From positions 1 to 53,460 of the forward strand of contig CALWFY010000164.1 in NCBI GenBank assembly GCA_944377775.1: a stretch of 53,460 nt of DNA, written 5' to 3'. Of the stretch, positions 24,937-44,251 are shown piece after piece. Numbering within the stretch: the stretch's first letter is position 1; each line of letters begins with the position of its first letter. A program made the position numbers and the translations under genes. Under the pieces are notes generated by a model. The model was not told the DNA's origin and ran no database searches. It worked only from the letters and a program-made list of their open reading frames with translations. The stretch comes from an uncultured Mediterraneibacter sp. (GTDB lineage: Bacteria > Bacillota > Clostridia > Lachnospirales > Lachnospiraceae).

Positions 24937-25230
24937 ATAAGAAATTATGCAGTGAAGGCATGGCTGTACATTCAAACTAAGTATTAGACTTTTTTGTATC
25001 ATAGGACTAATATTATTTTAGGAAAGAAATTCCCAGTATTTTATGGAAATGGAGGAATTATTAATGGATAAAGAAAAAATGAAACAGGATTTAGGCGGGG
25101 GCAACGTATTTGAGATTGGAGAGCCTAACACAGCGTTTGCGCAGTATTTTATCGGACAGAGCTATTTGAAAATGCTCACCACAGAGTGAGCCGGCATTGG
25201 CAACGTGACATTTGAGCCAGGGTGCCGTAA
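24937..25230 (+). repeat. Left copy of ~294 bp direct repeat (cupin upstream region + 5' coding part; attL-like)
   Basis: Aligns to 30841-31133 with about 25 differences by manual count (~91%). Confidence 0.95.
25064..25230 (+). pseudogene. Truncated cupin 5' fragment
   Basis: MDKEKMKQDLGGG...LTTE*AGIGNVTFEPGCR; TGA at 25187-89; homology ends at 25230. Confidence 0.92.
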
Positions 25231-25246
25231 AATGTACTAAGATTTT

Positions 25247-25331
25247 AAGTGTGTATCGTGTGTATAGCGTTTGAAATACATGGGAATATTGTACAGTGTA
25301 CACAGTTGAGGATGAAAAGTGTGTATGGTGT
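25247..25331 (+). repeat. Direct repeats at island left end (putative recombinase binding sites)
   Basis: aagtgtgtatcgtgt (25247-61) and aagtgtgtatggtgt (25317-31), with further GTGTAY motifs between. Confidence 0.6.
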
Positions 25332-26039
25332 TGAGATAGATTGAGAAACTGGTTGAAGGAGAAAAATCCAGATGCCAGCTTTTTCGAGAAAACAGAAGAG
25401 TATATGTTAATATGAAATTAGGAGGATGGAAGAAGCGCAGGGGAGAGAATTTTCAAGTAGTGACAAAGTTTTCTTGAACAGTGTGAGGAAAATTTTGTCC
25501 TTTTTTGATTATAAAAAACAGGATGATATATTTTACGGCTGTGGCAGTGTGCGCAATACATCAGTCTGATGTATTGCTTCTTTCTGATACTGAAGCAGTA
25601 TGAATGCAAAATGGTATTATATTTTCCGGAAAGGATTAACGCCGAGGCGGAATCCATATCAGACAGAGGCCTGATGGATGATGAAGTGGAAATAATCAGG
25701 CAGAAGGATTCTGCTTGAATCAGTGGCTGATAAGATGCAGATAGACTGGAAGACAGTTCAGTCAGCACTCACGGTAAATGGAAATGCAGAGACGGTTTGT
25801 GAATGTACTGAGGCGCTGCCTGGAAAGTTCAGAGACAGGTTGCCAGAGATTGCGCCGGTAGGAGGTCTGGGAAGTCTGACGGCTGTATTTTTTCAAAAGA
25901 GAACAGCTGATTGATAATAAAACAGAAATTGAACAAGACTAATGCAGGATCTTCGATAATAAAAAGTAGTTGTTTTTAGCTTTTACATTGTAATATACTT
26001 TAGGTGTGGCGTATTTTCAGGACGGGGAGAGGAGCGGCT

Positions 26040-28952
26040 GTGGAAGAACAAAGGATACTATGTGAAGGACGTGAACAAGAATTGCAGATGTGCGGAGAAT
26101 ATATTAGTCAATATGATCCGACACAAAGTTTTGTTTTCAATCTCTACGGAGAAGGCGGGATCGGAAAGACTGTCGTAACGCAGGAACTTTACAGGAATTA
26201 CTTGGGCTGTATTACAGATTGTCATCGGGGAATAAAGACGGTCTATGTTAATGCGTCAGGGTGTTTTTCTATCCCTGCATTGCTGCTCAGGCTAAGAATG
26301 AGTCTGGGAGATGATCCGTACGATTTTGAAAAATTTGACATAATGTATGAATTGTTTTACGATGCATCTGAATATGTCAAATTAAAACGTATAAAAGAAC
26401 TTACAGCACCGGAAGGCGGAAATCTTGCAGGACTTATCTTGGACTTTGCTATGAATGAAGTGGATGAAGACTATAAGTCATTGAGGAAAAGCACTGTCGG
26501 CAATCCTCTTGTAGATTTTATTAAATTTACGGGGCCAATTCTTGATCGCATTCCTATAGCTCATATTTTTGATTGGGTTAAGAAGAGCAATGAATTAAAA
26601 ATGCGCTCTGGTTTAGTAGAGGATATCATTAAATCAAAAGGTATATTTAAAGAAGAGAAAAAACTGATTGAATTTTTCTGTGAGGCTGTTACAGATACGA
26701 AGGATTATCCATTATCGCCATTTCTCTTTTTTATTGATAATTTTCAGAACGGTTCTCTGGAAATGAACAGAGGATTCCGTTTTCAGAATTTGGATGGATT
26801 TTTTGAATTTATAAGACGATTTCCGGCTTTTTGGTTTATATCATCAAGAAATGTTTTAACCTATCACGCAGATAATAATTTTGCCCAATATGAATTAAAA
26901 GGGCTGAATGCTGACGCGGCGAAGAGGATTATCAGGCAGACACAGGGAGCGGAGAAAATAACTAATCTGAAAAATGTGTCAGAGAATATCCTCAGTCTTT
27001 CAAATGAAAATGTCAATGAGGACAACGGACAGAAGCTTGAACTGTACAGTCCGATCATTCTTCGTATTTTATGCCAGGTACTGGAGAAAGAAATCGAGAA
27101 AACCCGTGAGGATCATCCAGAACAAAATGCGTTAGAAATTTCACCGGAGATTTTTTCTGATATACCGGAACGGTCAGCTTTGACATACTATTATGAGATG
27201 GGAAAAACTTCTGTTGATCTGGATTGTTTCCATATATTGTCCTGTGCAGATGTGTGGGATGATTATACCCTTACGGTTTTAAAAGAACGGCTTCAGTTCT
27301 ATTTACTCAATACACGTCATATACTGGCGCGGGATTCGATGACGGAATTGTTAGGAGACAATTCTATTAAACTCCATGATCGTATTGCTGAAGCTCTCAG
27401 GGGAAGCGCAAATAACAGAATTCGTTTTGACGTATATGCGATTATGTATGATGCATTTCTGGAGATTCAGTTAACAAGCCCAATCCTTGAAGAAGGAGTT
27501 TTAAGAAACTTTTTTGTTTTTGCAAAGGAATATTGCGAGAATCTTGCATTTGGGGAATATAGATATAGAGGAAAAGACGCTTATAATGCTTATGTGTTTT
27601 TCTATAAGGCTTTTCTTAAATCGATAGAAAAGCTAAAAGAAAGAATTTCTGGAGCGATGATTGATATCTACTGGAATGTTGTCAGAGAATTTTCCAACAT
27701 TGCGGCTAAATCCAAAGTAAAAAATCTGGATGATATAACAGAGGCTTATCACCAGCTTGGAATTGTAACGTATGATGCAGGAGACAGCAAAAAAGCGGAA
27801 AAGATAGATGAAGAATTATTAGCGTTTGCCCAAAAGGCCGAATATAAGTATGGTGAGATCATAGCGGCTAATGCTTGTGCTGTTGATTGTTCGGCCAATC
27901 ATTTATACAATAAAGCGTATGAATATGGGGAAATTTCTCTTGAAGCGGCATTAAATGCTATTTTTGAAATAGCAGAAACTTCGGCTGCCCAGTTCTTGAA
28001 AAAAGTATGTGAGTTTTATTCTCAATATCTTATATTGCCTCAAAGTGACGGGCATAATACAAATTATGTTGAAAATCATGAAAATGAAATAAAAGAAAAC
28101 GCGGAACTTATACAGAAAATCTGTGATATTGAAAAAGGGCATCCTGCGTATAAAGCAAGAGAAATATGGGAAAGTATGCTGACAACAAGAGGCAGTATTC
28201 CATGGTATTTGCTTGAAGATTCTGTCTTGAAAAAAGAAAAAGCGGCATACGCTTTGCCATATGGTCAGGATACATATTATTTAAGAAAATATTATTATGG
28301 CGAAGAAGATCCAAAAACGCTGCAGTCTTATCATAATATCGGAGTATATTTAATGAAATATGCCGAGTATTGCGAAAAGGGTGATATCTGCGATAACAGA
28401 ATAGATATCGAAAATTCGTATACCAATGCAGAGAGAATATTTTTAAAAGTTCATGAAATTCGAAAGAAAGTACTTGGGGTTACACATAACATAACAAAAG
28501 AACAGTATTTCCGGGAACTTGAGGATAATGCCAATGCAGAGGAACTGAGTTTTCTGAATGTTTATGACAGAACTGCAATAGAGCGTATTTTTGAAGAGGG
28601 ATATGATAATTGCTCGGCGGCAGCTTTGGAGTCTTTGCAATATAAATCAAATGCATGCTATTTGATTTCTCAAAAATCCGAACTTTTTGAAGTGAAAAAG
28701 GAGAAGCTTGATGAGGCGGTCAGACTTTCCGACATAGTCACTGTTGCAAGAAGTTTCCTGTTTGGACCTTATCATAGGAAAACGCTTGAAAGCATGCGGT
28801 ACAGTGCTGAGTATTACTGGGCAAAAAGAAATAAAGAGATGGCAGGCAGAAGGATCAGATATGCATTTGGTCATTTAAATCAGGGTCAGATATCCGGCGA
28901 ACAATATAAAGAATATAAACACTTATTTGACATAATAACAACTGAAAAATAA
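26040..28952 (+). CDS. STAND-class NTPase with C-terminal TPR repeats (NLR-like)
   Basis: GRE, Walker A GEGGIGKT, Walker B FFIDNF, sensor ISSR, SPIIL, LHD (MHD-like), TPR G.E.P.TL / GP.H..TL; GTG start after GGAGAGGAG. Confidence 0.82.
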   Translation: MEEQRILCEGREQELQMCGEYISQYDPTQSFVFNLYGEGGIGKTVVTQELYRNYLGCITDCHRGIKTVYVNASGCFSIPALLLRLRMSLGDDPYDFEKFDIMYELFYDASEYVKLKRIKELTAPEGGNLAGLILDFAMNEVDEDYKSLRKSTVGNPLVDFIKFTGPILDRIPIAHIFDWVKKSNELKMRSGLVEDIIKSKGIFKEEKKLIEFFCEAVTDTKDYPLSPFLFFIDNFQNGSLEMNRGFRFQNLDGFFEFIRRFPAFWFISSRNVLTYHADNNFAQYELKGLNADAAKRIIRQTQGAEKITNLKNVSENILSLSNENVNEDNGQKLELYSPIILRILCQVLEKEIEKTREDHPEQNALEISPEIFSDIPERSALTYYYEMGKTSVDLDCFHILSCADVWDDYTLTVLKERLQFYLLNTRHILARDSMTELLGDNSIKLHDRIAEALRGSANNRIRFDVYAIMYDAFLEIQLTSPILEEGVLRNFFVFAKEYCENLAFGEYRYRGKDAYNAYVFFYKAFLKSIEKLKERISGAMIDIYWNVVREFSNIAAKSKVKNLDDITEAYHQLGIVTYDAGDSKKAEKIDEELLAFAQKAEYKYGEIIAANACAVDCSANHLYNKAYEYGEISLEAALNAIFEIAETSAAQFLKKVCEFYSQYLILPQSDGHNTNYVENHENEIKENAELIQKICDIEKGHPAYKAREIWESMLTTRGSIPWYLLEDSVLKKEKAAYALPYGQDTYYLRKYYYGEEDPKTLQSYHNIGVYLMKYAEYCEKGDICDNRIDIENSYTNAERIFLKVHEIRKKVLGVTHNITKEQYFRELEDNANAEELSFLNVYDRTAIERIFEEGYDNCSAAALESLQYKSNACYLISQKSELFEVKKEKLDEAVRLSDIVTVARSFLFGPYHRKTLESMRYSAEYYWAKRNKEMAGRRIRYAFGHLNQGQISGEQYKEYKHLFDIITTEK

Positions 28953-28997
28953 TCATTTGCGTATAAGATTTAGCGGTTGATGGCAGGAGAAGGAAAG

Positions 28998-29996
28998 ATG
29001 GAAAGTTATTATTTTAGATGCGGAGACAGCGTAGTTGATACACGGAGAAAAATAGATGAAGCAATCCGGCAGTGGCTTACTTCGAAGGAACTGATGGATA
29101 TTGTTGAAGCGTTTGGCGGGGGATATCCAAATACCAGCGATAATAAGAAACTGGCCGGCTGGCTTCTGGAATTCAGCGAAAACTGGGATTATCGGAAAAA
29201 GCAGAAAGAGGCAACAGACGCTAAAACCGGAGAAGCGGCCAGGTGGTTGGTGAAGAATGATTCTATTTCTGAGGAACAGGGGAAGGCGGTTTTCAGAGGA
29301 ATAGACAAGCTGGGATTAAGAAATGTGTCGAAACCGTATCTGGAAAGTTATGATTATATTGTAGCCCTTGGCGGAGCCAGAATGTCCTGCCTTTTTCGGC
29401 CACGATACGTCGGACAGTTGATTTCGCAGATGAAAAGTGCACCAGAATCAGCTGTGATGCTTTCCGGTATGCGTCCGGTCGCCGATACAGAAAGAACAGC
29501 GACTGATACGTATGCTCCCGGGGAAATGACGGAATATGATTTGATCAATGCGGGTGTGGAAAAAACCTTTAATCTCGAAAAAGAATACGAGGAAAGAAAA
29601 TACTGCCATCCAAACGCAAATAGATCATGGGCAATACGGACTTATGTCGCGCCCCAATATGATTTTAAGATACAGTCTGTTTCCGGTCCTTCATCGGATC
29701 CAGAGACCAGAAGGGCAAATTCAGCAGATACCTTTGCATTTTTTGTAAAAAAGGAGCAGATAAATCCACATAGCAAGATACTTCTTGTAACCAGCCAGAT
29801 TTATGTACCCTACCAGCAACTGGAGGCGGTCAGAACTTGGGCGATACCGAACGATGTGTATGTAGAAACAGTAGGATTTCCGACGGAGTGGAACGTAAAT
29901 CAGCAGGGCATGATGGAGACAGCTAATTATCTGCAGGAGATCAGATCTACTATTCAGGCAGTGAACCGTTATTTGAAAGAGTTTGGAACGGCATAG
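28998..29996 (+). CDS. Uncharacterised protein, divergent YdcF/DUF218-like (HUP fold)
   Basis: YIVALGGA, RRANSADT, ILLVTSQIY and YLQE in DUF218-like order; RBS AGGAGAAGG; 45 nt after the NTPase stop. Confidence 0.6.
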   Translation: MESYYFRCGDSVVDTRRKIDEAIRQWLTSKELMDIVEAFGGGYPNTSDNKKLAGWLLEFSENWDYRKKQKEATDAKTGEAARWLVKNDSISEEQGKAVFRGIDKLGLRNVSKPYLESYDYIVALGGARMSCLFRPRYVGQLISQMKSAPESAVMLSGMRPVADTERTATDTYAPGEMTEYDLINAGVEKTFNLEKEYEERKYCHPNANRSWAIRTYVAPQYDFKIQSVSGPSSDPETRRANSADTFAFFVKKEQINPHSKILLVTSQIYVPYQQLEAVRTWAIPNDVYVETVGFPTEWNVNQQGMMETANYLQEIRSTIQAVNRYLKEFGTA

Positions 29997-30135
29997 TAAA
30001 AAGAGTAGAGTATTTTATAAACCGATTATTTGACAGAAAATAGGACTTAATTTATATTCCCGTCTTTGATAGTTTAAAAAAGCAAAAATGGTTATATCCT
30101 TGATTCTATGGGGTGTAGCCATTTTCCCTTTTGTA

Positions 30136-30635
30136 ACGATGCTTGGAACAAGGATATCGGATACACTGACATTACAGCAGGATTGCCTGTATAAAGAGAA
30201 CGGACAGGATATGATCAGAATCTTCCAGCCGAAAACCAGAATGTATGTAAAACCTGTCAGCAGTGAACTGGCACAGTTAATCCGTAAAGCAATTGAGCAT
30301 AGAGTTCAAAAATATGGGAAGCGAAAATATATATTTGTAGATGACAAGTATCCGAATAAGCGTTGCAGTACAACACAATACAAAGGAAAGTACTTACATT
30401 AATCTGGAACGAAAAATTAAAAGACGATAATGGAAAACTATTCGGATTTAGTTCGCATCTTTACTGACATTATTATGGAGTAAAGCTGACAGAGATGCAT
30501 CTGGATGATTGGATTATCGCGAAATTGTTGGGATATAAAGATATAAGAAGCGTCCGTTACTATCGGAGGATAAGTAATCAAAGTATGGCAGACGACACAA
30601 GAGAATACAGAAATTATCTTTCGCAGATTATCGAT
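30136..30635 (+). pseudogene. Tyrosine recombinase (Tn554 TnpB-like) C-terminal remnant
   Basis: LGTRISD catalytic R; frameshift near 30363; HLY*H (TGA 30465-67 replaces the HxxR Arg); LLGY for LLGH; RYY. Confidence 0.8.
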
Positions 30636-30761
30636 CAGGCGATGATAAAAGAAGTAGAACTTCTACAACAGCAGATCAGAAAATTGAAAGCAGAGAATGA
30701 AACCCTGAAGTTTAGAAAAGCACTTAACAGAAAGGAACTCAATATTGTAAAAAACCTTTAA
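30630..30761 (+). pseudogene. TnpC/DUF6262-like coiled-coil tail fused to the recombinase remnant
   Basis: DQAMIKEVELLQQQIRKLKAENETL...KALNRKELN, recalled as typical of Tn554-like third genes; boundary approximate. Confidence 0.55.
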
Positions 30762-30780
30762 GTCGATAATAACAATGAAA

Positions 30781-30807
30781 TGCAAGACATACGAGGTATG
30801 TCTTGTA
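30781..30807. terminator. Hairpin after recombinase remnants
   Basis: tgcaagacatac-gag-gtatgtcttgta; no clear T tail. Confidence 0.45.
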
Positions 30808-30840
30808 GTCGTTGATGATTATAGATAGAATGCGAAAATA

Positions 30841-31133
30841 ATAAAAAACTATGCAGAAGGGGCATGACAGCACATTCAAACAAAGCATTAGACTTTTTTG
30901 TATCATAGGACTAATATTATTTTAGGAAAAAATTCCCAGTATTTTATGGAAATGGAGGAATTATTAATGGATAAAGAAAAAATGAAACAGGACTTAGGCG
31001 GAGGCAGCGTATTTGAGATTGGAGAGCCTAACACAGCGTTTGCTCAGTATTTTATCGGACAGAGCTATTTAAAGATGCTCACGACAGAGAGGGTAGGCAT
31101 TGGCAATGTGACATTTGAGCCAGGGTGCCGCAA
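30841..31133 (+). repeat. Right copy of direct repeat (attR-like; restores the cupin gene)
   Basis: Matches 24937-25230 and continues into intact CRNNWH. Confidence 0.95.
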
Positions 31134-31389
31134 TAACTGGCATGTTCATCATAAAGGGGGTCAGATTCTGCTTGTAACAGGCGGAAGAGGCTGGTATCAG
31201 GAGTGGGGAAAACCTGCACAGGAACTGCATGCGGGTGATGTGGTGAACATTCCGCCGGAAGTAAAACACTGGCATGGAGCAGCAAAGGACAGTTGGTTCC
31301 AGCATCTGGCAGTTGAGGTACCGGCAGAGGGAGCGTCCAACGAATGGTTAGAGCCCGTAGATTCGGAAGAGTATGATAAATTGAAATAA
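30967..31389 (+). CDS. Cupin domain protein
   Basis: FEPGCRNNWHVH..GQ and HWHGA cupin motifs; ATG after GGAGG. Confidence 0.93.
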   Translation: MDKEKMKQDLGGGSVFEIGEPNTAFAQYFIGQSYLKMLTTERVGIGNVTFEPGCRNNWHVHHKGGQILLVTGGRGWYQEWGKPAQELHAGDVVNIPPEVKHWHGAAKDSWFQHLAVEVPAEGASNEWLEPVDSEEYDKLK

Positions 31390-39673: not shown

Positions 39674-40564
39674 ATGCGATATCTTTCAGTTAATGAAATA
39701 TCGAAAAAATGGAATGTGTCGGAGCGCAGTGTAAGGAATTATTGCGCTCATGGGCGTGTAGAAGGGGCATGTCTTACCGGTAAGACATGGAATATACCTG
39801 AGAATGCTGAAAAACCAGAGCGTTCCAACAAGAGAAAAGAACAGCCGATTACTTTACTGGATATTTTGAAAGAGCAGAAGACAAGCAAATACCCCGGCGG
39901 CATTTACCATAAGACACAAATTGATTTAACATATAATTCAAACCATATGGAGGGAAGTCGTCTAACCCATGATCAAACCAGGTATATTTTTGAAACCAAT
40001 ACTATCGGTGTGGAAAATGAAGTGCTGAATGTGGACGATGTGATTGAAACAGTAAATCATTTCCGTTGTATTGATATGCTTATTGATCATGCAAAATCCG
40101 CTTTGACTGAGAAGTTTATTAAGGAATTGCATCTGATTCTGAAAAGTGGAACCAGTGATTCCAGAAAAGATTGGTTTGCTGTGGGAGATTATAAGAAACT
40201 GCCAAATGAAGTGGGCGGTATGGATACCACACTTCCGGAAGAAGTTTCCGATAAGATGAAAGCTCTGTTGAAAGAGTACAATGCTAAAGAAGAAAAGACC
40301 TTTGAGGATGTTCTGGATTTTCATGTGAAGTTTGAAAAAATCCACCCCTTCCAGAATGGCAACGGCCGTGTGGGCAGACTGATCATGTTCAAAGAGTGCC
40401 TGAAATATAATATTGTTCCGTTTATCATCGAAGATAATCTGCAACCGTTCTATTATCAGGGATTGAAAGAGTGGGGTAACGAAAAAGGATATCTGACAGA
40501 TACCTGCCTGACAGTACAGGATAAGTACAAAGCGTATTTAGATTATTTTAGAATCCAGTATTAA
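39674..40564 (+). CDS. Fic family protein with N-terminal HTH
   Basis: HTH (WNVSERSVRNYC), inhibitory-type SNHMEG, Fic motif HPFQNGNGRVGR. Confidence 0.9.
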   Translation: MRYLSVNEISKKWNVSERSVRNYCAHGRVEGACLTGKTWNIPENAEKPERSNKRKEQPITLLDILKEQKTSKYPGGIYHKTQIDLTYNSNHMEGSRLTHDQTRYIFETNTIGVENEVLNVDDVIETVNHFRCIDMLIDHAKSALTEKFIKELHLILKSGTSDSRKDWFAVGDYKKLPNEVGGMDTTLPEEVSDKMKALLKEYNAKEEKTFEDVLDFHVKFEKIHPFQNGNGRVGRLIMFKECLKYNIVPFIIEDNLQPFYYQGLKEWGNEKGYLTDTCLTVQDKYKAYLDYFRIQY

Positions 40565-40586
40565 AGCAAGGAAACGAGGTGCAGCT

Positions 40587-41690
40587 ATGTCAGCGGAAAA
40601 AAACTGGCAATTTGAACTTGAAGAATATATCAAACAGGGTGAACCCGGTCAAATTGAAAAAAGTGAAGCATGGCAGACTGCAATCGGACTGCAGGCTGTA
40701 GATGGTCTGGAAATCTCTGCATATCTGCTTGATACGGCCAAGGAACATATTGAGGGGAAAATCAGTATTGACGAAGCTCAAAAGCGCATTCAAAGCTATT
40801 ATGAGCAACGTACTGATCGAATTGAAATTGAAAATGATACAAAAGAAGCGGATATTGTATCGACAAGAATTGCAAAGCTGTTGGGGGAAAAAACATTTCA
40901 GTTTTCGCCAGCGGAATGGTTTACCATTCACCGGAGACTGTTTGAAGGTGTATTTTCCCACGCCGGTCAGATCAGAGAGTACAATATTATGAAAAAAGAA
41001 TGGGTGCTGAAAGGCGATACTGTCACCTATGCGGCATGGAACAGTATCAGAGATACTTTGGATTATGATTTTTCAACGGAGAAGCAGTTCTCATACGAGG
41101 GATTATCTGTGGAAGATTCCGTAAAACATCTGGTAAAGTTTGCATCTGATATTTGGCAGATTCATCCTTTCTGTGAGGGAAATACCAGAGCTACGGCTGT
41201 TTTTATGATTAAATACATGAAAACATTTGGCTTTAAGGTGAATAACGATGCTTTCGAGAAAAACTCTTGGTACTTTCGTAATGCGTTAGTAAGAGCAAAT
41301 TACAATGATCTGCAGAACGGTATTCACGCAACAACAAAGTTTTTGGAAATGTTCTTCAGTAATTTGATTCTCGGAACGGAATATGAACTCAAAAACAGAT
41401 ATATGCATGTGGACTATGTTTCGGGACAGAATGCTAATGACGTGCAAAGTGCAATGGAAAGTATTTCAAAGGGCAAAATTTGCACTTTGAATTGCCCTTT
41501 GGATGAGCTGGCTATTCTTCAGCTGATTATGGAGAATCCCAATATTACGCAGAAAGAAATAGCAAATAAAATTGGGAAATCGGAAAGAACAGTAAAAAAT
41601 AAAATTGCTTCATTGAAAGAAAAGGGATATATTCAAAGGTTAAACGGTAAGCGAAATGGTAAGTGGGAGATACTTATAGATTTAAGTTAG
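40587..41690 (+). CDS. Fic family protein with VbhA-like N-terminus and C-terminal HTH
   Basis: AIGLQAVDG, HPFCEGNTR, C-terminal ITQKEIA..SERTV winged helix. Confidence 0.9.
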   Translation: MSAEKNWQFELEEYIKQGEPGQIEKSEAWQTAIGLQAVDGLEISAYLLDTAKEHIEGKISIDEAQKRIQSYYEQRTDRIEIENDTKEADIVSTRIAKLLGEKTFQFSPAEWFTIHRRLFEGVFSHAGQIREYNIMKKEWVLKGDTVTYAAWNSIRDTLDYDFSTEKQFSYEGLSVEDSVKHLVKFASDIWQIHPFCEGNTRATAVFMIKYMKTFGFKVNNDAFEKNSWYFRNALVRANYNDLQNGIHATTKFLEMFFSNLILGTEYELKNRYMHVDYVSGQNANDVQSAMESISKGKICTLNCPLDELAILQLIMENPNITQKEIANKIGKSERTVKNKIASLKEKGYIQRLNGKRNGKWEILIDLS

Positions 41691-41805
41691 TTTGAAGTAC
41701 TAGGTAGTTTCAAAATAGTTGGCGAACAAATTACCGGAAGTTTTATTTTGCATAATGAAGTTTATTTCCTAGAAGCAAAATGGACAAATAAAAAAATTGT
41801 AATCT
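41691..41805 (+). pseudogene. PD-(D/E)xK restriction endonuclease remnant
   Basis: FEVLGSFKIVGEQITGSFILHNEVYFLEAKW resembles the Mrr-like GEQIDGSF...EAKW motif. Confidence 0.55.
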
Positions 41806-41978
41806 CACCATACATTTTAAAACTTATTTACCATGGCAGGAATTTCTCTTTTTACAAATCCCTTGTGTATGTAGGTTCCCAAATTGTACATTTATATATA
41901 GTTATAAGTAAATTACATCATATAACTTGCATTACACCATTATATAAGATACAATGATGATGTAATGGAGGCATAACT

Positions 41979-42953
41979 ATGGATAATACATTGACCTATT
42001 TGAAAGAAATATTCGGAATCAATATAAAAACAGAATGTGGGAAATTTTACAATGCTTTTCCTATGTATATGATGGAACGATATAAATTTTGTTTTATAAA
42101 AATTCCGGGCGATGATAAGTCTTATGTTTTGGTAGAACCATTAAAAAGACAAGATATAAATATAAATCAGCTGAAAAAGCAGATGAAACAAATATATGGC
42201 TATTCAGAATCTATGCCAATTTTTGTTTTTGAGAGCTTGCGTCTCTCCCAAAGAAATATATTAGTTAGAAATCAGATTCCTTTTATTCAACCGGATAATC
42301 AAATATATATACCGAATATAGCGATCAATTTAAGTCAAAAAGAAATAATCCAGAAAGATTATGGAAACGAATTTTCCATAGCTGCACAGGTAACGTATAT
42401 TTACCTTTTATTAAATGATATTAAAGAAACAAATGCACCACGCTTAGCGGCAGAAATGCCATATTCCAAAATAACATTTAATCGTGCATTATCAGAACTG
42501 GTAAGTCGGAAATTGCTTTATACAGAAGGTAAAGCTACCAGAAAAATGTATAAAACAATTGATAGGGATGAAATGTGGAAGAAAGGAAAGGAATTTCTTT
42601 TTAATCCTGTGGAAAAAGTGTTTTATGCCACTTACGATTTGTCCCATGAGGGATTATATATATCAGGTGAAACGGCATTAGCAAGATTGGGAGTATCCCT
42701 AACTGTGCCAGATACATTTTTTTATGCGACGACATCTGAAAAGATTAAAAGTATAGATAAAAAGAGGTTTGTTAATAAGTATGACATAGTTACGGAGGAC
42801 TATTTCGTTATAGAGCAATTTAAATATGATCCCGGGTTTTTGAGCACATCTCACTATGTTGATATCATATCTTTGTATGCGCAGCTTAAAGACAATGATG
42901 ATGAAAGAATGCAGATTGCCTTGGAAGAATTGCTGGAGGAGAAGAACTTATGA
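41979..42953 (+). CDS. Winged-helix protein, AbiEi-like antitoxin/regulator
   Basis: IPFI..Q.YIP, wHTH SKITFNRALSEL, SGETALA, VD..SLY..L...DER; coupled to the downstream NTase. Confidence 0.7.
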   Translation: MDNTLTYLKEIFGINIKTECGKFYNAFPMYMMERYKFCFIKIPGDDKSYVLVEPLKRQDININQLKKQMKQIYGYSESMPIFVFESLRLSQRNILVRNQIPFIQPDNQIYIPNIAINLSQKEIIQKDYGNEFSIAAQVTYIYLLLNDIKETNAPRLAAEMPYSKITFNRALSELVSRKLLYTEGKATRKMYKTIDRDEMWKKGKEFLFNPVEKVFYATYDLSHEGLYISGETALARLGVSLTVPDTFFYATTSEKIKSIDKKRFVNKYDIVTEDYFVIEQFKYDPGFLSTSHYVDIISLYAQLKDNDDERMQIALEELLEEKNL

Positions 42954-43687
42954 TCAGTATTAACGGACTAAATAAGTTCAGAGAATTTTTTGAGGAATAT
43001 GATAATAATTATGTGCTGATCGGTGGGACAGCATGTGCGATTATTTTCAATGAAATAGGAGAACCCTTTAGAGCTACAAAAGATATGGATATTGTTCTTA
43101 TAGTCGAAAATATAAATGATGAATTTGGACGAAAGTTGTGGGATTTCATCAAGAATGCTGGTTATGATGTTGAATTTGGCCAGGAAAAGAAATGCTTTTA
43201 CCGATTTAAAAATCCGAAAAATAATGATTTCCCAAAGATGATCGAATTGTTTTCATGTGATCAAAATGTTTCATTACCGGAAGATATCCACTTGATCCCT
43301 ATTCATGTTTCAGATGAAATATCAAGCTTGTCAGCTATTTTGTTAAATGAGGATTATTATCAGCTTATGATAAAGGGTAAGCGTGTAATAGACGGGCTCT
43401 CGGTTTTGGATGAAAAATATCTTATTCCATTTAAAGCCAAAGCTTGGTGCGAGCTTATAGAACGAAGAAAGCAGGGAGAAGAAGGGCAATCCCGGCATAT
43501 AAAAAAGCATTGTAAAGATATAGCTAATTTAGTTGGGCTATTGACGCCGGATGAGAGACTTGAGGTTTCGGGGATGGTAAAAACTGATATGCAGACTTTT
43601 GTGGATGATATTTTAACAAGTGAATTTGTGCCGGACAGTGTGGATGGCATAAAGTTACATAGAGTATTAAAAAAGATTTACTTATAA
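42950..43687 (+). CDS. AbiEii-like nucleotidyltransferase
   Basis: LIGGTA and RATKDMD Pol-beta motifs, K.KAW, KH..D; stop/start overlap with upstream gene. Confidence 0.8.
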   Translation: MISINGLNKFREFFEEYDNNYVLIGGTACAIIFNEIGEPFRATKDMDIVLIVENINDEFGRKLWDFIKNAGYDVEFGQEKKCFYRFKNPKNNDFPKMIELFSCDQNVSLPEDIHLIPIHVSDEISSLSAILLNEDYYQLMIKGKRVIDGLSVLDEKYLIPFKAKAWCELIERRKQGEEGQSRHIKKHCKDIANLVGLLTPDERLEVSGMVKTDMQTFVDDILTSEFVPDSVDGIKLHRVLKKIYL

Positions 43688-43786
43688 GAGAATTTATGAA
43701 GAAGATACAGAAGTTATAAGAAAAATAAAAGTTGTAAAAAGCCGTTAAATATAAGGAAATATGACAATTAGAGGAGAAGTGCGAAC

Positions 43787-44251
43787 ATGATAAAAATACT
43801 ATTCATCTGCCACGGCAACATCTGCCGCTCAACAATGGCCCAATACGTCTTCCAACACCTGGTCGACCAATCAGGCCTCACTGATTCTTTCTACATCGAC
43901 TCGGCTGCAACCAGCCGCGAGGAGATCGGCAATCCGGTCCATCACGGAACCCGGCGCAAGTTAAAGGAAGTGGGAATCCCCTGCGGCGATCACCGGGCCC
44001 GACAGATGCGCGCTGCAGAGTATGAGGAATTTGATTACATCATCGGGATGGATTCATGGAACATGCGCAATATCGGACGGATCATCGGAAACAATGACCC
44101 GGACAAAAAAGTGTACAAGCTCCTTGATTTTACAGACAGGAGAGGAGCAGATATTGCTGATCCCTGGTACACAGGAGATTTTGATGTTACTTACACAGAC
44201 GTAAAAGAGGGCTGTGAAGCCCTCCTTAAAGACTGCCTCTTACGCCTCTAA
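43787..44251 (+). CDS. Low molecular weight protein-tyrosine phosphatase
   Basis: CHGNICRS P-loop, DPWY. Confidence 0.96.
   Translation: MIKILFICHGNICRSTMAQYVFQHLVDQSGLTDSFYIDSAATSREEIGNPVHHGTRRKLKEVGIPCGDHRARQMRAAEYEEFDYIIGMDSWNMRNIGRIIGNNDPDKKVYKLLDFTDRRGADIADPWYTGDFDVTYTDVKEGCEALLKDCLLRL

Follow-up and report, generated by a model that had tools for sequence, protein, structure and literature searches.

Organization of the two-gene cassette

The window analyzed here is a 53,460-nt stretch of DNA (contig CALWFY010000164.1, assembly GCA_944377775.1) from an uncultured Mediterraneibacter sp., and it harbors a cassette of two genes on the forward strand. Gene 1 (26040..28952) encodes a STAND ATPase-TPR protein of 970 amino acids (aa) that carries no N-terminal effector, as judged from its motifs, Pfam matches and structural model. 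Gene 2 (28998..29996) encodes a soluble 332-aa protein of the Rv3785_N family (PF27209), for which the family match and the model predict a YdcF/DUF218-like HUP fold. The start of gene 1 is the GTG at 26040, preceded by AGGAG, and that of gene 2 is the ATG at 28998, exactly 45 nt past the stop of gene 1 and with a Shine-Dalgarno sequence of its own (GGAGAAGGAAAG). An earlier note on this DNA had described a first gene of ~970 aa, a 45-nt gap and an intact second gene on the same strand with its own ribosome-binding site, and the open reading frames (ORFs) confirmed this layout. Differences from relatives at codon positions 1/2/3 amounted to 0.27/0.18/0.50 for gene 1 and 0.27/0.21/0.58 for gene 2, and because the divergence is rich at the third position, a codon-type constraint on both genes is indicated. 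The guanine-cytosine (GC) content of the cassette is 0.38 versus 0.47 in the flanks. A scan for promoters and terminators stayed near chance level, with no prediction directly 5′ of gene 1. Overall, we read the pair as an intact, horizontally moved cassette in a low-GC mobile context, which is likely a defense module.

Gene 1 encodes a STAND-TPR protein

The motifs previously quoted for gene 1 were all found, namely GRE at residue 10, GEGGIGKT at 37, FFIDNF at 230, ISSR at 267, SPIIL at 337, LHD at 445, YGEEDPKTL at 753 and FGPYHRKTL at 908. We take the first three to be an N-terminal GRxxE-type motif, Walker A and Walker B, and we assume that P338 is GxP-like and LHD MHD-like. Across 29 sequences, the Walker A residues G37, G40, G42 and K43 are conserved in at least 90%, while D233, N234, R270, P338, L445 and H446 are invariant. 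The Pfam families TPR_12 (41.9 bits) and TPR_10 (28.4 bits) scored above the cut-off, with AAA_16 and NB-ARC below it. The structural model (predicted local distance difference test score, pLDDT, 79) comprises a P-loop domain with a helical insertion of ~130 residues, a helical domain, a winged helix and a long tail of helical repeats. The insertion lies between Walker A and Walker B at about residues 96–225 (26325..26714, forward strand; model helices at 97–217), and a membrane-spanning nature was rejected on hydropathy, the 19-residue maximum of the window protein being 1.3. The best Foldseek match of the model was 6mfv, a STAND-TPR crystal structure (E 3e-5), at a low TM-score of 0.18/0.23, and the family profile also matched ZAR1, ORC/Cdc6 and the TPRs of Pins. 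Walker A and Walker B after an N-terminal motif, a conserved Pro, a winged helix and C-terminal repeats, all features expected of a STAND, were thus found in one protein. As Walker A is located at residue 37 and the ATPase starts at residue 10, nothing fits ahead of the ATPase, and Walker A falls within the first 57 residues in all 13 unfused pairs. The motifs, the TPR matches, 6mfv and the position of the ATPase together support the STAND-TPR architecture without N-terminal effector that the note had put forward. The gene 1 family is small, with 22 proteins obtained by a word-based search.

Gene 2 belongs to the Rv3785_N family and has a predicted DUF218-like fold

The gene 2 product was assigned to PF27209 by a precomputed match on P0001 (Atlas score 0.97), and this family is carried by 119 of the 120 homologues listed, including the protein's own cluster. 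A total of 770 representatives were counted at 50% identity clustering and E ≤ 1e-10. Local Pfam returned no family at E ≤ 1, PF02698 (DUF218) included, and NCBIfam gave nothing significant. The gene 2 model (pLDDT 91) was compared with 48,161 chains, among which YdcF (3ca8) alone reached Z ≥ 8 (Z 9.4, root-mean-square deviation 4.2, 197 residues aligned; next match 7.3). A Foldseek search of the model against pdb gave no clear match, a PDB sequence search with the gene 2 query A1 gave nothing significant, and hhalign of the same query against single SanA or YdcF sequences was not significant. A profile of 128 gene 2 homologues aligned to a 31-sequence DUF218 profile with a probability of 55%, the reversed control giving 0.05%. 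The note's description of gene 2 as DUF218/HUP-like therefore holds at the level of the fold (YdcF Z 9.4, profile 55%) and fails at the level of the family, which is PF27209 with no Pfam DUF218 match. These models and profiles point to a predicted DUF218-fold enzyme that is not a canonical DUF218 member.

The DUF218/Upr family comprises UprA (SanA), UprB (ElyC), UprC and YdcF (10.64898/2026.10.14.759067; PMC12176290), and DUF218 proteins hydrolyze the sugar-diphosphate bond (C55-PP-sugar) of undecaprenyl-linked glycans by means of T125, H149, R152 and E182 (10.64898/2026.10.14.759067; triad also in PMC12176290). Like these proteins, gene 2 has a predicted HUP-type core, and the LGG, Arg and Glu of its first half align with theirs. 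The global profile alignment is unreliable in the second half, so the equivalences of S242, Y269 and E314 rest on motif order; on that basis, the gene 2 homologues would have Ser/Thr at the T125 position (127/128) and an invariant late Glu (128/128). Unlike DUF218/Upr proteins, gene 2 does not keep His149 and Arg152, has ~90 extra N-terminal residues with WDxR, and possesses no membrane anchor, its maximum hydropathy of 0.76 making it cytoplasmic like YdcF. The conserved elements of the family are WDxR, R82, LGG, R134, R159, E165, E179, RRAN[TS]xD, Q273 and YLQE, and the near-invariant arginines would suit a phosphate-rich substrate. No functional study of PF27209 or Rv3785 was found in the literature searched, in which Rv3785 appears, by title and the start of the abstract, mostly in variant surveys. 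Apparent mentions of DUF218 in two papers turned out to be DUF2188 and DUF2185.

Linkage of the two genes in distant bacteria

A gene 1 relative adjoins gene 2 in 9 of the 61 GTDB gene 2 loci (L001, L005, L007, L010, L014–L017 and L019), at 19–47% identity where measured, and a further pair was obtained at L097. In five of six metagenome loci found via gene 1, which is the unbiased direction, gene 2 lies at most 1.1 kb away, the sixth contig ending inside gene 1, and no complete gene 1 locus without gene 2 occurred among the loci examined. The paired partners come from Bacillota, Thermodesulfobacteriota and Melainabacteria, with gene 1 identities of 19–63% and with both gene orders represented. 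L001/L065 and L005/L068/L069 are near-copies whose gene 2 sequences share 90% identity or more; once such copies are merged, 12 different rows with adjacency are left, the window being one of them. Of the 25 loci that do not belong to the distant actinobacterial group, 12 carry a STAND of some kind next to gene 2 and in the same orientation, and two more carry a DUF4062-STAND within one gene. All 11 dereplicated members of the gene 2 clade of the window adjoin a STAND or a TIR/TPR-S gene or have one at a distance of one gene.

Trees of both genes for 14 pairs split the L014–L019/P0150 group from the group of the window and share several sister pairs, the window and L065 being sisters in both; the gene 1/gene 2 Mantel rho is 0.61 (n = 14, kin not independent). 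In three proteins (P0150, P0317 and P0318), the gene 2 domain is fused N-terminally to a gene 1-family STAND, and because their mutual identity is 80–87%, the fusion is not a single assembly error. Conserved synteny in both orders, co-inheritance and this fusion answer in the affirmative the note's question of whether homologues are syntenic, and the adjacency or fusion of the pair in distant bacteria suggests that it is likely a new kind of bacterial immune module. Complex prediction for residues 1–660 of gene 1 with gene 2 scored 0.00 in two runs in which the controls did not fold. At L015:10933-14123 and L070:3302-6285, the STAND gene is split into two ORFs, by decay or assembly error.

Other partners and fusions of gene 2

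Gene 2 also adjoins, or is fused to, STANDs bearing SIR2, PNP, TIR, DUF4062, wHTH or protease-like N-termini. The partners with an N-terminal domain of their own carry SIR2 (L004), PNP (L008), DUF4062 (L002/L003), wHTH (L096) and TIR-PNP (P0316), and because they have this domain, gene 2 is not needed as the sole effector there. The gene 2 domain is also C-terminal in a TIR-PNP-NACHT protein, and P0292 is a wHTH-BTAD-gene 2 fusion. A family of ~1200-aa proteins (P0219, P0225, P0229, P0241, P0242, P0252, P0270, P0283 and P0319–P0322) combines a STAND, TPRs and the gene 2 domain; its N-terminus may be transglutaminase-like (GTCLD motif; Atlas 0.82–0.84), which we take only as a lead.

A second type of partner, a protein of ~235 aa whose N-terminus is hydrophobic and which matches DUF4760 weakly, is encoded directly downstream (L006:1188-1913, L009:10926-11630, L022:10900-11592 and L023:10934-11650; fused in P0224) and 26–42% identical across four phyla. 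Mycobacterial gene 2 homologues are flanked by a sugar epimerase/dehydratase gene on one side and by a GT2-M23 gene on the other; the Microbacteriaceae homologues are located after nadD-like and rsfS genes. Large genes near the mycobacterial homologues were rejected as gene 1 relatives, the one scanned (L024) being a class I tRNA synthetase.

The L014, L015, L017 and L019 clade is found among AMP-binding enzymes and acyltransferases, with a resolvase ahead in three loci, and the gene 2 of L019 is fused to an NT5C nucleotidase. Within a polysaccharide cluster at L005:8701-11523, genes for a cytidylyltransferase-like protein, a kinase, an unknown product and a histidine phosphatase come after the pair, and at L068:7804-8958 a DUF4062-diadenylate cyclase fusion stands immediately 3′ of the pair.

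Insertion site, distribution and defense context

The cassette is enclosed by a direct repeat of ~300 bp whose copies (24937..25230 and 30841..31133, forward strand) are 86–92% identical, lie 5.9 kb apart and represent the start of a cupin gene. The left copy contains the promoter region and a dead cupin 5′ copy (25064-25237) with an in-frame stop, and the right copy continues into the intact cupin gene at 30967-31389. Between gene 2 and the right repeat lies a stretch (30139..30761, forward strand) with a tyrosine-recombinase remnant split across two frames (30139-30632), then a DUF6262 fragment, both matches being below the cut-off; it resembles the last integrase of three-integrase + DUF6262 elements found in relatives, with 50–59% identity to the L084/L085 integrases. 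No match to the integrases tried was obtained in 25240-26000, so that of the flanking decay previously described, the stop in the left cupin copy and the broken recombinase on the right were recovered, and a left recombinase was not. A joint that skips the cassette (25155 to 31182) was not read as excision, because one of its sides spans no more than 20 letters.

In genome G402, the same arrangement of a partial and a full cupin copy encloses a TOTE primase (AEP)-helicase-PLD gene and a HEPN/nucleotidyltransferase (HEPN/MNT) pair (L081:3313-8122). Because the equivalent site carries these genes, the cupin site accepts variable conflict-type cargo, and the cupin duplication is a cargo hot spot. 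A second low-GC stretch (0.32–0.40) occupies window positions 40000-44000, with ORFs at 40587, 41979, 42950 and 43787, the one at 41979 resembling an unannotated gene near the G402 site.

The distribution is patchy: gene 2 was detected in 5 of 73 genomes of the genus and in 1 of 398 from the class, and gene 1 in none of 400 genomes from the family. The stretch is carried by gut metagenomes, several from chicken, with no RNA dataset among the listed carriers. The note had proposed looking for co-occurrence with defense genes, and among 70 hand-picked neighboring proteins, PADLOC-type matches indeed occurred at several loci (L002, L003, L006, L007, L012, L066 and L069), consisting of RT_UG24, RT_UG10, ThsB, CARF-HEPN-mCpol, SspD, PDC-S15, PDC-S72 and NDT. 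At L012:4937-10978, gene 2 follows TIR and TIR/TPR-S genes and is located beside CARF-HEPN-mCpol and Macro genes.

Comparison with known systems

Neither gene 1 nor gene 2 matched any model in PADLOC 2023, whose library does not cover Avs7-21 or the sensor clusters of 2026; this was the outcome that the note had taken as a sign of novelty. No STAND partner of the DUF218, YdcF or Rv3785 family was found in the literature searched, which included a 2020 conflict-system paper and left bioRxiv supplements outside its scope, nor were DUF218/Upr proteins found reported with STANDs. The main text of PMC13581612 does not contain DUF218, YdcF or Rv3785, and the seven supplements covered, which do not include three large files, do not contain DUF218, YdcF, ElyC or SanA. 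The statement that no named system has this pairing hence stands for the literature searched and PADLOC 2023, with the qualification that the three large files and the bioRxiv supplements could list this STAND clade.

Like the Avs proteins (Lee et al. 2026, PMC13581612), gene 1 is a STAND NTPase whose long C-terminal sensor is TPR-like, and it is mobile, patchy and near defense genes; unlike them, it has no fused N-terminal effector and is accompanied by a separate YdcF-fold partner. It shares the absence of a fused effector with bNACHT01, which in contrast is a stand-alone NACHT protein with a short SNaCT tail (Kibby et al., 10.1101/2022.07.19.500537). Gene 1 further differs from bNACHT01 in its ~500 aa of TPRs, its weak matches to AAA_16/NB-ARC rather than NACHT, and its constant partner. 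Unlike gene 2 of the window, the mycobacterial Rv3785_N members have no STAND partner. That a STAND cooperates with an enzyme encoded by a gene of its own is already known, as in Avs1 with its metallo-β-lactamase nuclease and apparently in CARD-NLR systems; what is new here is the partner family of the STANDs.

Possible function of the cassette

We propose, with a rough probability of 0.5, that the cassette is a mobile defense module in which detection of an invader by the STAND protein would turn on the YdcF/DUF218-fold enzyme, encoded by a gene of its own, as the output. Gene 2 is proposed as the output because the cassette has no other intact enzyme-like gene and because the N-terminal fusion puts it at the usual effector position. 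By analogy with other STANDs, the TPR array would bind a ligand, which is a phage protein in the Avs proteins, and the ATPase would then oligomerize and activate the gene 2 enzyme, as may be expected from Avs and NLR biology (PMC13581612; 10.1101/2022.07.19.500537); the N-terminal fusion suggests activation by direct contact. The most speculative step is that gene 2 would cut the sugar-1-(di)phosphate bond of a cytoplasmic substrate, perhaps lipid I/II or a nucleoside diphosphate (NDP)-sugar, possibly another phosphate-rich nucleotide, and so stop the growth of the infected cell. The proposal of this substrate, the weakest step, draws on Upr enzymes as an analogy and on polysaccharide genes that recur as neighbors. 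The chemistry of gene 2 is possibly sugar-phosphate hydrolysis, and we regard as rather improbable the complete scenario in which a bacterial NLR recruits in trans a cytoplasmic Upr/DUF218-type hydrolase whose cleavage of sugar-1-diphosphate cell-wall precursors leads to death or arrest of the infected cell.

Several observations weigh against this proposal. Six other STAND partners have their own N-terminal domain; the gene 2 domain is C-terminal in the actinobacterial ~1200-aa STAND-TPR proteins, one of them from Streptomyces sp. NPDC088196; and some homologues pair with the ~235-aa membrane protein instead of a STAND. None of the 36 distant actinobacterial loci among the 61 from GTDB has a gene 1 relative, and the 11 actinobacterial loci with scanned neighbors (mycobacterial and Microbacteriaceae) show no adjacent STAND. 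The pairs at L014, L015, L017 and L019 lie among acyl-adenylate enzymes, not defense genes, the PADLOC run on neighboring proteins was without background control, and no gene 2 homologue was found in phage or IMG/VR collections. At the inferred catalytic positions, half of the DUF218 tetrad is kept, His being replaced by Tyr/Phe and Arg by Tyr/Phe or Gln. Given the effector-bearing partners, the C-terminal fusions and the 36 of 61 loci without gene 1, the note's claim that gene 2 supplies the effector in trans is not established over an accessory role.

Such an accessory role, in which gene 2 would be a guardee, a decoy, or the maker or remover of a TPR-sensed ligand and gene 1 would act via a host target or its helical insertion like bNACHT01, appears somewhat unlikely. 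The company of STANDs with their own effectors, the C-terminal fusions past the repeats, which is the usual sensor position, and the wHTH-BTAD-gene 2 fusion P0292 argue for it, as does bNACHT01, which protects alone and belongs to a clade without fused effectors (10.1101/2022.07.19.500537). It is harder to reconcile with the N-terminal fusion lineage, where gene 2 occupies the effector slot, and with the lack of any other intact enzyme-like gene in the cassette of the window.

A non-immune signaling or metabolic cassette, in which a STAND-TPR protein would regulate an enzyme whose substrates are sugar or lipid precursors of the cell envelope, is unlikely in view of the very patchy presence, the integrase or resolvase neighbors, the exchange of partners among SIR2/PNP/TIR/DUF4062 proteins and the use of the site by other conflict cargo. 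It would nevertheless account for the polysaccharide-synthesis genes beside L003, L005, L018 and L069, the sugar epimerase/dehydratase and GT2-M23 genes around the mycobacterial homologues, MurB near both plasmid matches and the acyl-adenylate enzymes flanking one clade. That the two genes are independent defense-island passengers hitch-hiking without functional coupling is very unlikely, since, although both are rare and mobile and most gene 2 loci lack gene 1, their adjacency persists through order swaps and 80% gene 1 divergence, the main split is common to both trees, fusion proteins occur, and every complete gene 1 locus examined has gene 2.

Surveys of STANDs score clades by their fused effectors and known neighbors and can therefore easily overlook an effector-less clade whose partner is separate and unannotated. 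The cassette is easy to test, as it consists of two genes in 4 kb. If confirmed, the proposed module would contribute a further, new family of effectors or accessory proteins, with ~770 clusters at 50% identity, whose members join unrelated STANDs at either terminus. It would also connect immunity with the recently resolved DUF218 chemistry and offer a testable handle on an uncharacterized family. Should the hydrolase reading be true, it would mean a new immune effector chemistry, reused as a swappable module by many STANDs, and would give the Rv3785_N family its first function.

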